NCBI GenBank assembly: GCA_022448725.1
Contig: JAKUTR010000002.1
Span: 60,535 to 124,534 of the forward strand
DNA length: 64,000 bases
Origin: SAR202 cluster bacterium
GTDB lineage: Bacteria; Chloroflexota; Dehalococcoidia; Lucifugimonadales; VXLM01
Direction of reading: 5' to 3'
The notes beneath the pieces were generated by a model, which searched no databases, had not been told where the DNA came from, and worked only from the letters and a program-made list of their open reading frames with translations. Shown here in pieces: positions 3,819 to 34,530 of this stretch (the stretch's first letter is position 1; every line of letters starts with the position of its first letter). The translations under genes and the position numbers were made by a program.

Positions 3819-4085
3819 GGTCGCGCACCCCCTTTCGAACGTAACCCAGGGCGTGAAACCAGGTGGTAGCTCAAACCAGGCTATCCCACGGCACCCGGAA
3901 CATCACTGCATACCGCTGCTTCCTTCCGGACCTGACGGGGTTCACAGGCATCCGCCGCGTGGGACCCAGTTATCGACACCAACACCTGGAACATAGGCCA
4001 CGAGCCTTGCCCTCCAGGGGGACTTCAGCCTCGCTATGGCGGACTGCGAGTTCAGGGCTCCGCCAAATCCCCACCTAGCGCGACC
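3819..4085 (-). ncRNA. ffs: Signal recognition particle RNA, long (Bacillus-type, Alu-domain-containing) form
   Basis: The minus strand contains GTCAGGTCCGGAAGGAAGCAGC, the universal helix-8 motif with its GGAA tetraloop. The 5' GGTCGCGC (4085..4078) is the exact complement of the 3' GCGCGACC (3826..3819), closing a ~267-nt molecule. The 5' GCTAGGTGGGGA resembles the start of B. subtilis scRNA (from memory). End coordinates are +/- a few nt. Confidence 0.85.
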
Positions 4086-8053: not shown

Positions 8054-8126
8054 CTCCATAGTCAGTCACAAAGACCCGACCCTGATACGGTAAAGTTACA
8101 AGCCGTGCAATGTATACTTCGCAAGT

Positions 8127-9470: not shown

Positions 9471-10343
9471 ATGGAGTCGCGCATGGATATGAGTAGCCTC
9501 CTTGAATCTCCCAGTATTACGACAGTCGCAACCGGCTTCAAGTTCACCGAGGGGCCTGTTTGGCATCCTGACGGCTATTTACTGTTTACTGAAATCGGTG
9601 ACCCATGGCAAATATGGCGGGTCATACCTGGTCAACCCAAGGAACTTTATCGCGATAACACCAACCGTGCGACTGGCCTGACTCTCGATCTGAATGGAGA
9701 CCTCATTGCGTGTGAGCAAATGTCACGATCGGTAACCAAGATGGACCCATCCGGCACAATCTCATCTATCGCAACGCACTACGAGGGTCAACGGTTGAAC
9801 CGGCCTAACGACGTCGTCGGACGTAGCGATGGAAACTTGTACTTCAGCAATCGAGGTGCTGGAAGCTGGGAGGACGAGACTGATATCGAAGAGAACGGGG
9901 TCTACCGTATATCCCCAGGGGGCGAGGTTCACCAAGAAATTTACCCTTTCGAGGATCCGAACGGACTGGCAATCTCACCCGACGAGAAGATTTATTATCA
10001 AATTAACACCCGCCCCTCGGCACATATTGACGCATTCGACATTGCAGACGATGGGTCACTCTCAAACATGCGTCGTCTTTTCACTTTCCCAAAATCCGAT
10101 AAGCCCGGTTTCCCCGATGGTATGAAAATCGATATTGAAGGCCGTATATATGTTTCTGGACCAGGTGGACTCTGGGTACTAACCGCAAATGGAGATAAGT
10201 TAGGGGTTATAGAGTTCCCTGAGCAAGTGATCAACATGGGGTGGGGCGAAACAGATAATCAAACACTCTTTGTAGCAGCTATGACCTCAATTTATTCGAT
10301 CCGTCTTAGAACACCGGGTACATCAATACCACTTAGCCTATAA
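9471..10343 (+). CDS. SMP-30 / gluconolactonase / LRE family protein
   Basis: Has GFKFTEGPVWHPDGYLLFTEI, RPNDVV and PDGMKID beta-propeller lactonase motifs. Confidence 0.8.
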   Translation: MESRMDMSSLLESPSITTVATGFKFTEGPVWHPDGYLLFTEIGDPWQIWRVIPGQPKELYRDNTNRATGLTLDLNGDLIACEQMSRSVTKMDPSGTISSIATHYEGQRLNRPNDVVGRSDGNLYFSNRGAGSWEDETDIEENGVYRISPGGEVHQEIYPFEDPNGLAISPDEKIYYQINTRPSAHIDAFDIADDGSLSNMRRLFTFPKSDKPGFPDGMKIDIEGRIYVSGPGGLWVLTANGDKLGVIEFPEQVINMGWGETDNQTLFVAAMTSIYSIRLRTPGTSIPLSL

Positions 10344-22780: not shown

Positions 22781-22870
22781 TGGCGGAGAGTGTGGGATTC
22801 GAACCCACGGTCCCCTTGCGAGGACACACGATTTCCAGTCGTGCCCAATCGGCCGCTCTGGCAACTCTCC
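22781..22870 (-). tRNA. tRNA-Ser (anticodon GGA), CCA encoded
   Basis: The minus strand reads GGAGAGTTGCCAGAGCGGCCGATTGGGCACGACTGGAAATCGTG...GGGTTCGAATCCCACACTCTCCGCCA. It has a 7-bp acceptor stem, G73 discriminator, anticodon loop CTGGAAA, long variable arm and GTTCGAATC T-loop. Confidence 0.9.
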
Positions 22871-22878
22871 GCTATTCG

Positions 22879-22906
22879 GAAGAATCGCATCGCGATGCGA
22901 TTCTTC
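22879..22906. repeat. 28-bp perfect palindrome in the spacer between the two tRNA-Ser genes
   Basis: GAAGAATCGCATCGCGATGCGATTCTTC is its own reverse complement. Confidence 0.9.
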
Positions 22907-22911
22907 GTCTA

Positions 22912-23001
22912 TGGCGGAGAGAGTGGGATTCGAACCCACGATGAGGTTGCCCCCATACCGGTTTTCGAGACCGGCGCCTTAAACCGCTCGGCCATCTCTC
23001 C
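22912..23001 (-). tRNA. tRNA-Ser (anticodon CGA), CCA encoded
   Basis: The minus strand reads GGAGAGATGGCCGAGCGGTTTAAGGCGCCGGTCTCGAAAACCGG...GGGTTCGAATCCCACTCTCTCCGCCA. It has anticodon loop CTCGAAA, a long variable arm and G73. Confidence 0.9.
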
Positions 23002-29126: not shown

Positions 29127-30569
29127 TTATGCGTCAAAGTAGAGCGAAAACTCTAGTGGATGGGGTGCCAGCTTGATTTGGTCCAACTCACGGCTTCGCT
29201 TGTAATCAAGCCACTCCTCTATCAGATCGATTGTGAACACACCCCCCACCTGGAGAAAATCGTTGTCTGACTCAAGTGCGTCCAAGGCCTCATCCAACGA
29301 TGCTGGAACGTGTTTGATCTTGGCCAGTTCTTCCTCCGGCAAGTGATATATATCAGCCTCAAGCGGGTCACCAGGATCAATCTTATTTTGGATACCGTCA
29401 AGTCCTGCCATCAACATTGCCGAGAATGCAAGGTAGGGGTTAGCGGATGGATCGGGGCAGCGATACTCAACCCGCTTGGCCGCTGGATTCGCGAAATACA
29501 TAGGGATACGACAGGCGGCGCTGCGATTCCTGGCAGAGTAAACAAGGTTTACTGGTGCTTCAAAACCCGGAACAAGCCTGCGATATGAATTAGTCGTAGG
29601 TGCTGCAAAGGCGAGGAGCGTCGGGGAGTGTTTTAGTAATCCCCCAATGTAGTATTTGAGGGTCTGGCTTATTCCTGCATACCCATCACCTGCAAAGAGG
29701 GGCTCACCGTCCTTCCAAATACTCTGGTGAGTATGCATACCGGTTCCATTATCTCCATAGATTGGCTTCGGCATGAAAGTGGCAATCTTTCCATACTCTC
29801 GAGCGACATTCTTGACCACATATTTGTAGTTCATGACATTGTCAGCAGTGGTCGTAAGGGAGTCAAAAATGAAGTCAATCTCAGCCTGTCCTGCAGTCGC
29901 GACTTCATGGTGATGCTTCTCCACATCGATCCCATAGTTGGCCATTTTTAAGACCATTTCTGAACGCATATCTGTCATGGTGTCAACAGGAGACGCCGGG
30001 AAGTACCCTTCCTTGTGACGCGGGCGGTGTGCATTATTCAGCGTGATTCCGTCCAGCATCGTCTCGTCTCCTGTATTCCAGATGCCTTCGTCAGAATCAA
30101 CATGGTAGTAGCCACTATTGGCTGTCTGGTTGAAACGCGCAGTATCAAAGACGAAAAATTCGAGTTCTGGACCCCAATTGCTGACGTCACCGATACCCGT
30201 TGACTTGAGGTGTTCTTCAGCCTTCTGGGCAACATACCGTGGGTCTCTAGGGTAGTTACCACCGCTAATCGGGTCGCGGACGTTGCAGATAAGACTTAGG
30301 GTCGGAATTTCTAGAATCGGGTCAAGAGCAGCAGTATTAGGATCAGGAACAAGGAGCATATCGCTCTCATCGATGGTCTGAAAACCTCGAATACTTGATC
30401 CATCAAACCCAGTGCCTTCAGCAAATAGTTTCTCGTCCATCTCCGCAACCGGTAGGGTTACATGCTGAGTCGTACCTGGAACGTCAGTCAGCATAAGGTC
30501 AACCATCTGAATATCATTCTCTTTAGCAAACTCGATAACTTCCGCCGGTGTCCGTTCAATCCGAGTCAT
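29127..30569 (-). CDS. glnA: Glutamine synthetase type I
   Basis: 480 aa. Has FDGSSIRGF, GPELEFFVFD, KPIYGDNGTGMHTHQS and NSYRRLVPGFEAP. Confidence 0.95.
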   Translation of the reverse strand: MTRIERTPAEVIEFAKENDIQMVDLMLTDVPGTTQHVTLPVAEMDEKLFAEGTGFDGSSIRGFQTIDESDMLLVPDPNTAALDPILEIPTLSLICNVRDPISGGNYPRDPRYVAQKAEEHLKSTGIGDVSNWGPELEFFVFDTARFNQTANSGYYHVDSDEGIWNTGDETMLDGITLNNAHRPRHKEGYFPASPVDTMTDMRSEMVLKMANYGIDVEKHHHEVATAGQAEIDFIFDSLTTTADNVMNYKYVVKNVAREYGKIATFMPKPIYGDNGTGMHTHQSIWKDGEPLFAGDGYAGISQTLKYYIGGLLKHSPTLLAFAAPTTNSYRRLVPGFEAPVNLVYSARNRSAACRIPMYFANPAAKRVEYRCPDPSANPYLAFSAMLMAGLDGIQNKIDPGDPLEADIYHLPEEELAKIKHVPASLDEALDALESDNDFLQVGGVFTIDLIEEWLDYKRSRELDQIKLAPHPLEFSLYFDA

Positions 30570-30748
30570 ATCGCGATACCCCCTCTGAAAATAATTATGC
30601 CTACGTAACCAGATTCACCAAGGAACTAAAACATTAGTCAGGAAATCAGGTCAGCTTAACCCAAATTTCCGATCTATTTCTCCAAATTAAACCACTTATT
30701 GCCTCTTATCAAAACTAATCCCTAGTTTAGCAATCTAGGCCCCCCAGA

Positions 30749-30780
30749 TGTTAGTCGGATGTTACATCTTTGTTACACAC
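30749..30780. promoter_or_regulatory. Three direct TGTTA(C) repeats at 11-bp period upstream of glnA (putative nitrogen-regulator operator)
   Basis: aTGTTAgtcgg aTGTTAcatct tTGTTAcacac. On the gene-sense strand this reads GTAAC-n6-GTAAC-n6-CTAAC, 180-206 bp upstream of the glnA ATG. A 21-nt core is 18/20 identical to the site at 33775..33796. Confidence 0.5.
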
Positions 30781-30836
30781 GTGAACCACCGAGCGTTCTC
30801 AGTAGAAAGGAGCGTCAGAAACTCCTGATCCTACCG

Positions 30837-32069
30837 TCAGTGACGCTTTATACCCATCTCGTGGTGTGTACGAGGCTCAGAGAGGTAAGCCCCAGTATCA
30901 ATCTTGGAAAATCTCTCTGGCCGGAACGATTCGACATCAATCGATGTCTCGCCCACCACAGCATATTCAGACAAAAGCATGCCGGCCACCGGGTTATAAC
31001 CGAAACCACCAGAGTGAAAATTCACACCAACATAGAAATTGCCAATCCCAGGTATCGGTCCCAAAACCGGGTTGGCATCCATCGCGAAGCTAATCAGGCC
31101 CACTTTGTGGTAATCCCATTCAGCCTCGCTGAGAAGTGGAAGTCGGTCAACAAAAGTATCTTTGAGGAAGGGGAGTGCAGTGGGATCCGGTTCCAGTTCG
31201 TCAAACGTGAAATCAGGACCGGATATTGAGAATTCATTAGGGTTGTGCGCCGCAGTTCCAAGTAGTAGACGGTTATCGTCAGTGGGCCGAAAGTAACCAT
31301 CTTTAACGTTATCGTTTACAGCGGGGAGTTGAGGAGCTGTAGGAAACGGCTTGGTCACAAAACGCTCATGGATAAAGTTTTTCATGGGTATCTGATATCC
31401 AGCAAGTGACAGTACCTTGTTAGCCCAAGCATTGACAGTACATATCACCGCATCAGCTTTTATAGTCATATCCTGACTAGGCGTGGAGCTGCTCGCCATA
31501 TCCTTAACAACTACCCCGGTAACAGAGCTTCCATTCATATCAAATCCTACAAGGGCTTGGTTTTCACGAATCTCAACTCCAAGCTCTTTAACTTTCGTTG
31601 TCAGAGCCGGGATATAGCGGTGAGGCTCACTGTAGCCTCCACGCAGGTCAAGAACGCCATAATCATCTTCTGATGTGCACATGTCCGGGAAGCGATCCTG
31701 GAGTTCGCTGCCACGTAACAATAAAAACTCGGCACCAAGGCTAGATTGAAGCTCCCTTAATGGTGCACTCTCGATAAATGCATGCTCGCGAAATAAGTTT
31801 AAACAGCCAACTTGATGAAAGGTGTACCCATCAAGGATTTGCGAAAATCGTTCGAAAATATCGAGGCTCCGTGAGCGAGCGCGGATGGAAGCTTCGTCCT
31901 GCTGGAGCATCGTGACGATACCACCAGCTTTCGAGCTAGAACCGTCACCGACTTTGCCCTTATCAAGGACAATAATCTTTTCTACACCCTTCTCCGCCAG
32001 ATGGAACGCCGTACTCAGTCCAGCAATCCCGGCACCAACAATAACGACTGTCCTAGGCGGAAAAGTCAT
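30837..32069 (-). CDS. FAD-dependent oxidoreductase (DAO / sarcosine-oxidase-beta-like family)
   Basis: Has the N-terminal dinucleotide-binding motif VVIVGAGIAGLSTAFHLAEKG. At 410 aa it sits between glnK and glnA. Confidence 0.8.
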   Translation of the reverse strand: MTFPPRTVVIVGAGIAGLSTAFHLAEKGVEKIIVLDKGKVGDGSSSKAGGIVTMLQQDEASIRARSRSLDIFERFSQILDGYTFHQVGCLNLFREHAFIESAPLRELQSSLGAEFLLLRGSELQDRFPDMCTSEDDYGVLDLRGGYSEPHRYIPALTTKVKELGVEIRENQALVGFDMNGSSVTGVVVKDMASSSTPSQDMTIKADAVICTVNAWANKVLSLAGYQIPMKNFIHERFVTKPFPTAPQLPAVNDNVKDGYFRPTDDNRLLLGTAAHNPNEFSISGPDFTFDELEPDPTALPFLKDTFVDRLPLLSEAEWDYHKVGLISFAMDANPVLGPIPGIGNFYVGVNFHSGGFGYNPVAGMLLSEYAVVGETSIDVESFRPERFSKIDTGAYLSEPRTHHEMGIKRH

Positions 32070-32097
32070 GAGTATCTAGTCGGCCAAAATTGGTGGC

Positions 32098-32448
32098 TCA
32101 AATAGCCGCGTCTCCATCTTCACCAGTTCTGATCCGAATAGCGTTGCTAACGGGCGATACAAAGATCTTACCGTCGCCAATCTGTCCTCCATCAGGCCCC
32201 TTAGCAGATTCAACGATCGCCTCAATAACAGAATCTCTCATCCCATCTGGGATAACAGTTACTAACAAAGTCTTAGGCCCCGCCGCTTTAGCCATGTTTC
32301 CGCCTCTTCCAGTAAAGACTTCTACCCCACCTTGCCGACCTTGACCGGTAATGTTCTGGTAATGAAAACCTCCGCAGCCAGCTTCCTCCAAAGCCTGAGT
32401 CACTGAATTAATTCGTTCGGGACGGACGATTGCCTCTATTTTAATCAT
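32098..32448 (-). CDS. glnK: P-II nitrogen regulatory protein
   Basis: Reads MIKIEAIVRPERINSVTQALEEAG...TGQGRQGG...IGDGKIFV. It lies directly downstream of amt. Confidence 0.9.
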   Translation of the reverse strand: MIKIEAIVRPERINSVTQALEEAGCGGFHYQNITGQGRQGGVEVFTGRGGNMAKAAGPKTLLVTVIPDGMRDSVIEAIVESAKGPDGGQIGDGKIFVSPVSNAIRIRTGEDGDAAI

Positions 32449-32500
32449 CTTTTGCCACCTCGGAATTCAAACTTCTAGTCTTTCGATCCCAGTATCTATT

Positions 32501-33721
32501 TTAGTCTGCCCCATCCCTCACAAATGCTCTTTCACCATGTGCGGACAGATCCAAACCTTGATCTTCCTCATCACCAGATACCCTGAGCCCAAGACCAGGT
32601 ATTAGGTCAAGTACCTTCAAGATCACCAACGTGGCCACGAATGAGTAAGCCATGGTAGCTAAAACAGCTACAACCTGGGTTACCACCTGTCCGGAGTTAC
32701 CTTCTATAGCACCAGCCGTTCCGCCTATGGCCGCAACAGCAAAAATACCAGTGGCGATCGCACCCCAAATTCCACCAACCCCATGGACGGCGAAAACTTC
32801 CAGTGCATCATCGAGCTGTGTTTTAGCTCGGATATATACCGCAACGTAGCAAAGGGCGCCAGCACCGATACCAATAGCGAGGGCGCCAAGAACCCCTACG
32901 AAACCTGATGCAGGGGTTATTGCCACTAACCCTGCGACTGCCCCAGATGCCACCCCCACAGCACTCATCCGACCGGTCTGGAACTGAGAAATTAAGCCCC
33001 AAGTCAGCGCTGCTGCTGCTGCTGCTGTATTAGTTACTAGGAATGCATTCACAGCCTGCCCGTCGGCATTGAGCCCAGAGCCCGCATTGAAGCCGAACCA
33101 CCCGAACCAGAGCAATGCAGCCCCAAGAACGACATAGGGAACGTTGTGTGGTTCTAGACCGGGATCTTTTCGTTTTCCAACAAGTACTGCAGCAGCTACT
33201 GCAGCTACACCTGCGTTGATATGTACAACGGTACCGCCGGCAAAATCCAAAGCACCATCACCAAAGCTACCAAGCCAACCTCCACCCCAAACCCAATGGG
33301 CGACTGGAGCATAGACTAGAGTCACCCAGATAACCAAGAAGACAAGATACGTAGTGAACTTGAAACGCTCCACAAACGCACCTGTAATTAGGGCTGGCGT
33401 AATAATCGCAAACATCATTTGGAAAATAATGAACAGTAGGGTTGGAATCGTGTAGCCATCATAGACCTCTTTGGTATCGATTCCTGACAATCCAAACAAA
33501 CTAAGGTCACCTATGAATGCACTCCCCGGACCGAAGGCCAAACTATAGCCCCAAAGTACCCAAACGATGCTGACCACAGCCATCGCTATGAAACTGTACA
33601 TAATGGTGCTAATTACGTTTTTTGCGCGGACGAGCCCTCCATAGAAAAAAGCGAGCCCGGGCGTCATCAGTAATACTAAAGCTGAGGCTGTTAGCATCCA
33701 AGCAGTGTTACCAGAGTCCAT
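32501..33721 (-). CDS. amt: Ammonium transporter (Amt family)
   Basis: Has PGLAFFYGGLVR, DFAGGTVVHINAG and FGWFGFNAGS. 11-TM profile. Confidence 0.95.
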   Translation of the reverse strand: MDSGNTAWMLTASALVLLMTPGLAFFYGGLVRAKNVISTIMYSFIAMAVVSIVWVLWGYSLAFGPGSAFIGDLSLFGLSGIDTKEVYDGYTIPTLLFIIFQMMFAIITPALITGAFVERFKFTTYLVFLVIWVTLVYAPVAHWVWGGGWLGSFGDGALDFAGGTVVHINAGVAAVAAAVLVGKRKDPGLEPHNVPYVVLGAALLWFGWFGFNAGSGLNADGQAVNAFLVTNTAAAAAALTWGLISQFQTGRMSAVGVASGAVAGLVAITPASGFVGVLGALAIGIGAGALCYVAVYIRAKTQLDDALEVFAVHGVGGIWGAIATGIFAVAAIGGTAGAIEGNSGQVVTQVVAVLATMAYSFVATLVILKVLDLIPGLGLRVSGDEEDQGLDLSAHGERAFVRDGAD

Positions 33722-33774
33722 ATTTCTCCCCTACCTCCAACTTATACAAACTTAGCCTTACAATAACGACACGG

Positions 33775-33796
33775 TGTTACATCCGTGTTACACAAA
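33775..33796. promoter_or_regulatory. Two direct TGTTAC repeats at 11-bp period upstream of amt (same motif as upstream of glnA)
   Basis: gTGTTACatcc gTGTTACacaa. On the gene-sense strand this reads GTAAC-n6-GTAAC, 54-75 bp upstream of the amt ATG and 15 bp upstream of the divergent rnc ATG. Confidence 0.5.
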
Positions 33797-33810: not shown

Positions 33811-34530
33811 ATGAATTTAGAAGTGCTCCAAAATAAACTTGGCCTCAAGTTCCAAGACATCGAATTATTAGAACTTGCACTTACCCATAGTTCATATTTC
33901 AACGAGAACCCTCTCACAGCGAATGGTTCTAACGAACGGCTTGAATTTTTGGGTGATGCAGTTATTGGACAGATAGTCGCTGAAGAGTTACACAATAGCC
34001 ACCCAGGGTGGGATGAAGGAAAGCTAACCGAGGCTCGATCAATAATTGTTCGAGAGAGTGCCCTGGCAGATGTGGCGCAGCAAATCTGTCTTGGCCAGCA
34101 TCTTCTGATGGGCCACGGTGAAGACTCTGCTAAAGGCCGAACACGCCCGTCAAATCTCTCAGCTGCTTTAGAAGCACTTACCGGCGCCCTATTTATCGAA
34201 TTCGGATACGAGACAGCACGTCAAGTGGTGCTGGAACTACTCGTTGACCACATATTAGGTGTTGGAGAATCGGTCCTAATTTCAAACCCGAAGTCACTAC
34301 TTCAGGAAACGGCTCACTCGCTCGGACTCCCCTCACCAACTTACGAGATCATTGAAGAGGAAGGGAAGGACCACGACCGCTCCTTTACCGCTCAGGTTTC
34401 AGTTCAAGAGGAAGTTATAGGCACGGGTACTGGGAAGCGTAAGACTCTGGCAGAACGGGAAGCTGCGGCAAATGCTCTAGAAAAGATTGGCACTGTAGAA
34501 CCTGACACCCAGGCCCGAAAAGACCATTAA
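33811..34530 (+). CDS. rnc: Ribonuclease III
   Basis: Reads MNLEVLQNKLGLKFQDIELLELALTHSSY..NERLEFLGDAV, the RNase III signature, with a C-terminal dsRBD. I moved the start from the track's 33622 to the ATG at 33811, because the upstream part overlaps amt on the opposite strand. Confidence 0.9.
   Translation: MNLEVLQNKLGLKFQDIELLELALTHSSYFNENPLTANGSNERLEFLGDAVIGQIVAEELHNSHPGWDEGKLTEARSIIVRESALADVAQQICLGQHLLMGHGEDSAKGRTRPSNLSAALEALTGALFIEFGYETARQVVLELLVDHILGVGESVLISNPKSLLQETAHSLGLPSPTYEIIEEEGKDHDRSFTAQVSVQEEVIGTGTGKRKTLAEREAAANALEKIGTVEPDTQARKDH

Follow-up and report, generated by a model that had tools for sequence, protein, structure and literature searches.

Introduction

The literature describes GlnR, a response regulator of the OmpR family, as the master regulator of nitrogen metabolism in actinobacteria (PMC10235972, PMC5826061). 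It recognises a and b sites that share the consensus GTAAC and are set 6 nucleotides (nt) apart, and its protomers bind them head to tail. An a1-b1-a2-b2 array positioned about the −35 element is filled by four protomers, its final site being on the downstream side of −35, and base contacts are made by residues R186, V190, R193 and R194 (PMC10235972). GlnR boxes have also been modelled as 11-nt direct repeats, and GTnAC-n6-GTnAC is given as the commonest GlnR motif of Streptomyces venezuelae in work cited in the same paper (PMC5826061). Here we describe two arrays of GTAAC sites, upstream of the glutamine synthetase gene glnA and of the ammonium transporter gene amt, in a 64,000-nt stretch of DNA (the window) from a SAR202 cluster bacterium of the Chloroflexota class Dehalococcoidia (contig JAKUTR010000002.1, positions 60,535 to 124,534). 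An initial annotation of the window had read the glnA array as a GlnR-like nitrogen regulon operator.

At promoters activated by PhoB, the pho box, itself composed of direct repeats with an 11-bp period, ends about 10 nt upstream of the −10 hexamer. We consider it probable that these are GlnR-type operators, on which GlnR-like protomers would bind head to tail and control, by activation, glnA on the one hand and amt, a P-II gene and an oxidoreductase gene on the other.

Results

Two GTAAC-box arrays in the window

The word TGTTA starts at positions 30749, 30760 and 30771 of the plus strand, with an exact 11-bp period. The three copies lie in the 267-bp spacer (30570..30836) between glnA (29127..30569, minus strand) and the upstream FAD-oxidoreductase gene (30837..32069, minus strand). 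Read on the glnA-sense strand, the array is GTAAC-n6-GTAAC-n6-CTAAC. The promoter-distal box, TGTAACA (30771..30777, minus strand; core GTAAC at 30776..30772), is strong and forms part of the top-scoring two-box site of the window. The middle box, also TGTAACA (30760..30766, minus strand; core 30765..30761), follows at 11 bp, and the promoter-proximal box, ACTAACA (30749..30755, minus strand; core CTAAC at 30754..30750, with one core mismatch), at a further 11 bp. A possible degenerate fourth site, the most distal, may be seen at 30781..30787 (minus strand), either as GTTCAC, offset by 10 nt, or as GGTTC, offset by 11 nt. It is weak, and the weight matrix described below gave it no support (9.4-10.8 bits, the level of noise).

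The second array, GGTGTTACATCCGTGTTACACAA, occupies positions 33773..33795 upstream of amt, which starts at 33721 on the minus strand. On the amt-sense strand it reads GTAAC-n6-GTAAC, and its orientation relative to the gene is the same as at glnA. Both boxes are TGTAACA, the distal one at 33786..33792 (minus strand; core 33791..33787) and the proximal one at 33775..33781 (minus strand; core 33780..33776), and they stand 54-71 nt upstream of the amt start. The proximal box also falls inside an inverted repeat, ACACGG...CCGTGT (33769..33788, minus strand), which a scan scored as terminator-like; it is unlikely to be a terminator because it lies upstream of amt.

The paired motif was rare in the window. 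Allowing up to two mismatches, TGTTACA-N4-TGTTACA gave six matches against 0.46 expected, a count that no shuffled sequence reached, and exact copies occurred only twice in the 64 kb, at glnA and at amt. The single heptamer TGTTACA was not enriched (7 occurrences in the window, 7.2 expected), which indicates that the signal resides in the pairing of the boxes. The window was also scanned with a weight matrix made solely from sites in other genomes, with 128,000 positions scored and 50 shuffles as control. The glnA site ranked first with 25.0 bits and the amt site second with 21.1 bits; the top score of the 50 shuffles was 19.5. Two further matches, at 2553-2570 and 8083-8100, were set aside as chance occurrences, having scores of 12.7-13.9 bits, which is shuffle level; the latter is also wrongly oriented for the adjoining genes.

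These results agree closely with what the initial annotation had reported. The three TGTTA boxes, their 11-bp period and the 267-bp glnA spacer read as described there. The amt copy of the motif is real and has the same orientation, with its coordinates shifted by 1-2 nt, the array being at 33773..33795. Inspection by eye had found no further paired motif in the window, and all other matrix matches indeed lay at the level of noise. The exclusion of an NtcA palindrome was also borne out, as GTA-N8-TAC is absent from both operators.

Conservation upstream of glnA and amt in relatives

For footprinting, a glnA locus was counted as positive if its sense strand carried GTAAC-n6-GTAAC in the 400 nt before the gene, with no more than one of the ten core positions mismatched. 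Matching sites were found in 8/8 Dehalococcoidia loci and in 0/72 loci of other taxa, among them Nitrospirota, Planctomycetota, Acidobacteriota, Actinobacteria and other Chloroflexota. The remaining 2.57 Mb of sequence contained 17 matches, or 0.0026 per 400 nt, and some of these are themselves real sites. The near-identical loci L081-L085, which come from the same population, resembled each other too closely to be of use in the footprinting. One of them, L083, has a seemingly longer oxidoreductase-glnA spacer because a scaffold gap (a run of N at 9641..9740) falls within it. A relaxed GlnR-box pattern, applied as an actinobacterial positive control to the sequences upstream of seven Pseudonocardia glnA homologues, gave no match.

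The boxes, their period and their orientation were kept across the relatives, and the flanking sequence was not conserved. Position and orientation were maintained in genomes with G+C contents from 0.38 to 0.66, and the orientation of the boxes relative to the gene was identical in 19/19 promoters examined. Boxes upstream of amt were present in four further genomes (L001, L173, L174 and L175). In L001 they form a four-site array, GTAAC-GTAAC-GCAAC-GCAAC, while the amt orthologues of L173, L174 and L175, which are 86-87% identical, are preceded by GAAAC-n6-GTAAC. The amt locus L173 and the glnA locus L004 belong to the same genome, which hence carries boxes at both genes, and L173 has four in-phase sites. 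In-phase arrays of three or four sites were found in L001, L014, L087 and L173. L056 has its array in front of a second glutamine synthetase gene. The in-phase sites of the relatives comprise the variants GTAAC, GTGAC, GTTAC, GCAAC and GAAAC. Every gene that bears boxes serves nitrogen assimilation, namely glnA, the second glutamine synthetase gene or amt-P-II.

Position of the boxes relative to predicted promoters

Nineteen promoters were anchored on the last box of the array, and the start of TAnnnT hexamers was recorded. The offsets peaked at 10 nt (7 of the 19 promoters), 12 nt (2) and 32 nt (7). The 10- and 32-nt peaks differ by 22 nt, or two box periods. In the window, a −10-like hexamer, TAGATT (30732..30737, minus strand), starts 12 nt after the last glnA box and would belong to the glnA promoter, and TATTGT (33760..33765, minus strand) starts 10 nt after the proximal amt box and would belong to the amt promoter. 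The 10-nt offset recurs at amt of L001, L173, L174 and L175 and at glnA of L169 and L176. Direct reading of the four-site arrays of L014 and L087 showed CACAAT at 11 nt. The hexamer at 32 nt is the sole −10 candidate in L002-L004, L067 and L086; the window's glnA and L056 have a closer candidate as well. With a sole −10 candidate at 32 nt, the two strong boxes of those five promoters would fill the distal pair of a four-site frame.

From these positions, glnA transcription is predicted to start near 30725 (minus strand), with a leader of about 155 nt, and amt transcription near 33753 (minus strand), with a leader of about 32 nt. The glnA leader was considered as a riboswitch or other structured RNA, and this was rejected: a search of Rfam up to E = 5 gave no match, and the fold was no better than that of shuffled sequence (z = 0.15). 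The long glnA leader of the closest relative, L001, contains a 30-codon hydrophobic open reading frame, MEVVIGAVAFMVLFAVWVILPSRIRKQNKDS (9900..9995), which has no counterpart in the window.

No consensus sigma-70 −35/−10 pair was found in the glnA or amt spacer of the window. The lack of a usable −35, together with a proximal box 10-12 nt before a −10-like hexamer, suggests activation. The phasing of boxes and −10 hexamers fits both the a1-b1-a2-b2 model of GlnR and the PhoB arrangement, and thus points to activation by replacement of the −35 contact. If these predicted promoters are right, the 10/32-nt phasing would independently confirm, by comparison of genomes, the layout of the promoter in the GlnR activation complex.

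A GlnR-like regulator gene beside glnA in related lineages

A gene for an atypical OmpR-family response regulator lies directly upstream of glnA, with boxes in the spacer between the two genes, in L011, L014, L042, L086/L087, L168-172 and L176-179. The arrangement thus occurs in at least five other Dehalococcoidia lineages, at loci with G+C contents of 0.38 to 0.65. In two marine lineages, L168-172 (G+C 0.42) and L176-179 (G+C 0.38), the order is rpoB-rpoC-Lit-regulator-(GTAAC-n6-GTAAC)-glnA-glnA2-gltB, glnA2 being a second glutamine synthetase gene. An abundant family member, P0245, represents another marine regulator-glnA lineage and not that of the window. The neighbours of the regulator gene differ, being rpoA-truA-rplM in L011, a nucleotidyltransferase gene and a transporter gene in L014, and rpoBC-Lit in L168 and L176. 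No histidine kinase gene adjoins the regulator gene in these four neighbourhoods. The initial annotation had proposed a search for an orphan OmpR-family regulator; one was found directly upstream of glnA in these relatives, and none in the window or in the 10-kb flanks of glnA and amt in its closest relatives.

The regulators of L011, L014 and L042 have 228-240 amino acids and an OmpR/PhoB winged-helix domain (Pfam Trans_reg_C, 90-103 bits). Their receiver parts matched Pfam GlnR_1st with 29.1, 30.5 and 34.9 bits, small margins over the gathering cut-off of 27. The generic Response_reg domain scored 19.5 bits in L014, under its cut-off of 30.2, and no match to it was listed for L011 or L042. 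The best solved-structure matches were to actinobacterial GlnR, namely 8hig (4e-40), 8hih from Mycobacterium tuberculosis (1e-39) and 8hml, with RegX3 behind (4e-32). In bits the ranking was GlnR 141 and 140, RegX3 115, MtrA 102 and PhoP 95. Pairwise scores of the Dehalococcoidia regulators were 122-163 bits to two metagenomic actinobacterial GlnRs, 146-259 bits among their own subfamilies, and 78-115 bits to a hand-entered E. coli PhoB sequence. Overall identity to actinobacterial GlnR was 38-49%.

The L014 regulator has the recognition helix RTVDVHVRRLR and the wing TVRNVGY of the GlnR structure unchanged, these being the parts with the DNA-contacting residues, and the residue numbering of the GlnR chain in the alignment is that of PMC10235972. 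This identity agrees with recognition of GTAAC and is no proof of it, because the helix of PhoB is nearly the same. The position of the phospho-acceptor is Asn in L014 and P0041, Ser in P0033 and L086, and Asp in L011, L042, L087 and P0057. As read from the sequences, the regulators lack the usual acidic pair near the N-terminus.

Two further loci carry GTAAC words near regulator genes. In L169, at 9973..9995, the words GTAAC, ATAAC and GTAAC occur just upstream of the regulator start codon, with TATAAT-like hexamers on their own upstream side. Their spacing departs from the 11-nt phase, and they may reflect autoregulation or chance. In L103 (9189..11176), an exact GTAAC-n6-GTAAC stands 23 nt upstream of a gene for a GAF-GAF-ANTAR regulator, followed by a P-II-like gene, and a related response regulator gene is found 2.6 kb away. 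With this arrangement, another lineage may have a further level of nitrogen control.

Proposed mechanism and alternative readings

In the model that we favour, protomers of a GlnR-like orphan response regulator, an atypical member of the OmpR/PhoB family, would bind head to tail to tandem 5-nt sites (GTAAC, with the variants CTAAC, GCAAC and GAAAC) placed 11 bp apart on the gene-sense strand. One array would control glnA and the other the probable amt-P-II-oxidoreductase operon. The bound regulator would take the place of the −35 contact and recruit RNA polymerase, so that the nitrogen assimilation genes would be activated under nitrogen scarcity, as they are by GlnR in actinobacteria and as PhoB activates at pho boxes. 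We infer the binding of the regulator to the window's boxes, its activating effect and the signal that it would sense. The GlnR-like operator named in the initial annotation is supported by the conservation of the motif, its rarity, the GlnR-like gene beside glnA in relatives and the match to the published motif. The initial annotation had itself held that a motif lost upstream of glnA and amt in relatives, or equally frequent elsewhere in the genome, would speak against it. The motif was retained, at glnA in all eight Dehalococcoidia loci and none of the 72 others and at amt in L001 and L173-L175, and it was not of similar frequency elsewhere, with 17 matches in the 2.57 Mb of background.

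Several observations weigh against this model. An OmpR-family gene was absent from the 64-kb window, as determined by tblastn, and the 10-kb flanks of glnA and amt in the closest relatives (L001-L004, L067, L081-85, L167 and L173-175) likewise contained none. In two profile searches, no family member occurred on contigs of the window's clade among the best 120 of about 8000 matches. At the promoters of L011 and L042, no clear −10 stands where the offsets would place it. The glnA boxes stand 180-208 nt from the start codon, which leaves a leader of about 155 nt without recognisable function. The DNA-contacting residues of the regulators are common to other OmpR-family members such as PhoB, and GTAAC specificity is therefore unproven by them. 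Finally, repression would be just as possible from a site lying across the −35 to −10 region, and the promoter positions are predictions. The model supposes that the window's genome encodes a GlnR-like regulator.

The last of these points leads to the most serious alternative, that the same sites and the same protein family act with the opposite sign, the regulator repressing glnA and amt when nitrogen is plentiful. Because the proximal box stops 10-12 nt short of a −10-like hexamer, the −35 region lies under the array. Members of the family, actinobacterial GlnR included, have been reported both as activators and as repressors (PMC10235972, PMC4140684). Neither spacer, however, has a consensus −35/−10 pair able to work unaided. 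A distance of 10 nt to the −10 hexamer is the classic arrangement for activation by PhoB. The last GlnR site of the activation complex is similarly placed (PMC10235972). In the 32-nt class of promoters, moreover, the strong boxes are too far upstream of −10 to block RNA polymerase. Repression is thus unlikely, though it deserves to be kept in mind.

A second departure from the GlnR scheme concerns the signal or the identity of the reader. The Dehalococcoidia proteins have pseudo-receiver domains, in several cases with the phospho-acceptor Asp missing, and many of their genes lie directly upstream of glnA. A sensing route new for the family is therefore conceivable, through contact with glutamine synthetase or P-II or through binding of a metabolite. 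Equally, the window's clade may read its GTAAC arrays with a different regulator. Together, these variants are given a low probability, similar to that of repression.

Were the reader another OmpR/PhoB-family regulator, of the PhoP/PhoB or MtrA type, the arrays would look much the same, as 11-bp direct repeats placed 10 nt upstream of −10 are the arrangement of the pho box too. The missing GlnR-like gene in the window, in the 10-kb flanks and among the best 120 matches would be accounted for, and JGI automatic names label some members of the family as PhoP. PhoP and MtrA of Streptomyces are reported to bind at GlnR boxes, or close to them, in the promoters of glnA and amtB (PMC2691820, PMC9151340). 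The core of the boxes here is nonetheless GTAAC, the published GlnR consensus, and not TGTCA. Every gene that bears boxes is a nitrogen assimilation gene, and in at least five lineages the boxes stand between the GlnR-like gene and glnA. When the arrays were compared with the pho box, which has a TGTCA-type core and serves phosphate-starvation genes, the period and the −10 distance matched, whereas the core was GTAAC and the targets were nitrogen genes. We regard a reader of this kind as improbable, more so than a change of sign.

A palindromic site, either TGTNA-N7-TNACA for the MerR-type GlnR/TnrA or GTA-N8-TAC for the CRP-type NtcA, is very improbable. The resemblance has two sources. TGTTACA is nearly its own reverse complement, so that box pairs also score on the opposite strand, and TGTTA-N8-TTACA is superficially like a TnrA box. 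The spacer, however, is 8 nt and not 7, and neither operator contains the NtcA word. Nearly all boxes have their central base on the same strand, and the sense-strand score exceeds the antisense score by about 7-10 bits. Within the arrays of three and four, every site points the same way, and orientation to the gene was constant throughout the 19 promoters. A TnrA/GlnR (MerR-type) box was accordingly rejected on its spacer, on the direct repetition and fixed orientation of the sites, and on the arrays of three and four. Regulator genes of any kind were also not seen in the annotated parts of the window. The last alternative, a chance repeat or shared sequence relic without regulatory function, can draw on the lack of enrichment of the single heptamer and is effectively refuted by the excess of the paired motif (6 against 0.46 expected, and matrix ranks 1 and 2), by position and orientation conserved from G+C 0.38 to 0.66 while the flanks diverge, and by the restriction of the motif to nitrogen genes.

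Genes and sequence features around the operators

On the minus strand the genes are ordered amt, P-II, DAO-family FAD oxidoreductase and glnA. The product of glnA is a type I glutamine synthetase of 480 amino acids (Pfam Gln-synt_N and Gln-synt_C). The genes amt (32501..33721), P-II (32098..32448) and the oxidoreductase gene, already located above, were assigned by Pfam Ammonium_transp, P-II and DAO, respectively. These three are set apart by gaps of 52 and 28 nt, and a long spacer of its own precedes glnA. Judging from this layout, amt, P-II and the oxidoreductase gene probably form one operon (30837..33721, minus strand) under the amt boxes. The oxidoreductase might free ammonium from an amine or an amino acid. 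The P-II protein has an unusual T-loop, GQGRQGGVEVFTGRGGNMAKAAGPK, unlike the canonical loop with its modifiable Tyr51.

A weak hairpin, AGGAG-n9-CTCCT followed by TTTCT on the glnA-sense strand, is located at 30808..30826, 11 nt past the oxidoreductase stop and just upstream of the glnA boxes. It was not called by the terminator scan, and may be a terminator that isolates the glnA promoter. On the other side of the unit, the RNase III gene starts at 33811 on the plus strand, divergent from amt, and the amt boxes are 19-36 nt upstream of its start codon. Given this proximity, a bound regulator could also affect rnc transcription.

Among the window genes annotated through matching contigs or Pfam, none encodes a regulator of any kind. 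The window has a G+C content of 48.7%, and its population is present in several marine metagenome assemblies. In our collection, which holds one genome per species, the closest glnA loci all belong to Dehalococcoidia, at 81, 75, 74 and 73% identity. A large-type bacterial signal recognition particle RNA and two tRNA genes were also seen in the window (3821..4083 and 22784..23001, both minus strand); these are ordinary and unrelated to the operators.

Discussion

A full-text literature search that combined GlnR with Chloroflexi, Chloroflexota or Dehalococcoides found nothing relevant. Since the papers on GlnR call it actinobacterial, we judge its occurrence in a second phylum to be new. What the comparison of sequences puts forward is the same cis element with a homologous regulator in that phylum, and not a new mechanism. 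This suggests either that the GlnR system is older than the separation of the two Terrabacteria phyla or that it was passed from one to the other. In loci from marine, lake and other metagenomes, both the site and an atypical regulator homologous to GlnR are spread through Dehalococcoidia, a largely uncultured class. The model would be the first testable one of nitrogen control in this class. It also offers a rule by which nitrogen regulons can be predicted in metagenomic sequence: a GTAAC-n6-GTAAC whose end is 10 or 32 nt away from a downstream −10 hexamer.

Of the described systems, cyanobacterial NtcA and the GlnR/TnrA pair of Bacillus are the more distant. NtcA likewise places glnA and amt under nitrogen control from a site that replaces −35, as the boxes here would do. 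It belongs to a different protein family, that of CRP, and its site is the palindrome GTA-N8-TAC. In Bacillus too a nitrogen regulator is encoded immediately upstream of glnA (glnRA), with an operator before glnA and with TGTNA...TNACA-like words. Those proteins belong to the unrelated MerR family, and they repress as dimers on a 17-bp inverted repeat whose halves are 7 nt apart, in contrast to the 11-bp direct repeats found here.

PhoB of E. coli is closer. The pho box consists of 11-bp direct repeats that replace −35 and end about 10 nt from −10, and PhoB is of the same protein family, with a very similar recognition helix. The pho core is CTGTCAT, however, and not GTAAC, and PhoB governs the phosphate regulon as the phosphorylated partner of the kinase PhoR.

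The closest likeness is to actinobacterial GlnR. There, as here, the boxes are 5-nt sites of GTAAC consensus (with gTnAc and GaAAC variants) with 6-nt gaps, in direct-repeat arrays of two to four or more (PMC10235972, PMC5826061). The targets are glnA and amtB-P-II, and the last site falls between the −35 and −10 regions, here of predicted promoters. Like the Dehalococcoidia regulator, actinobacterial GlnR has a winged helix and an atypical receiver of the GlnR_1st type, and no partner kinase. The differences are that the host phylum here is Chloroflexota (Dehalococcoidia) and not Actinobacteria, that the sites are mostly of the a type, GTAAC, with GAAAC occasional, that several Dehalococcoidia lineages carry the regulator gene in a regulator-glnA-glnA2-gltB cluster, and that some members have Asn or Ser in place of the phospho-acceptor Asp.

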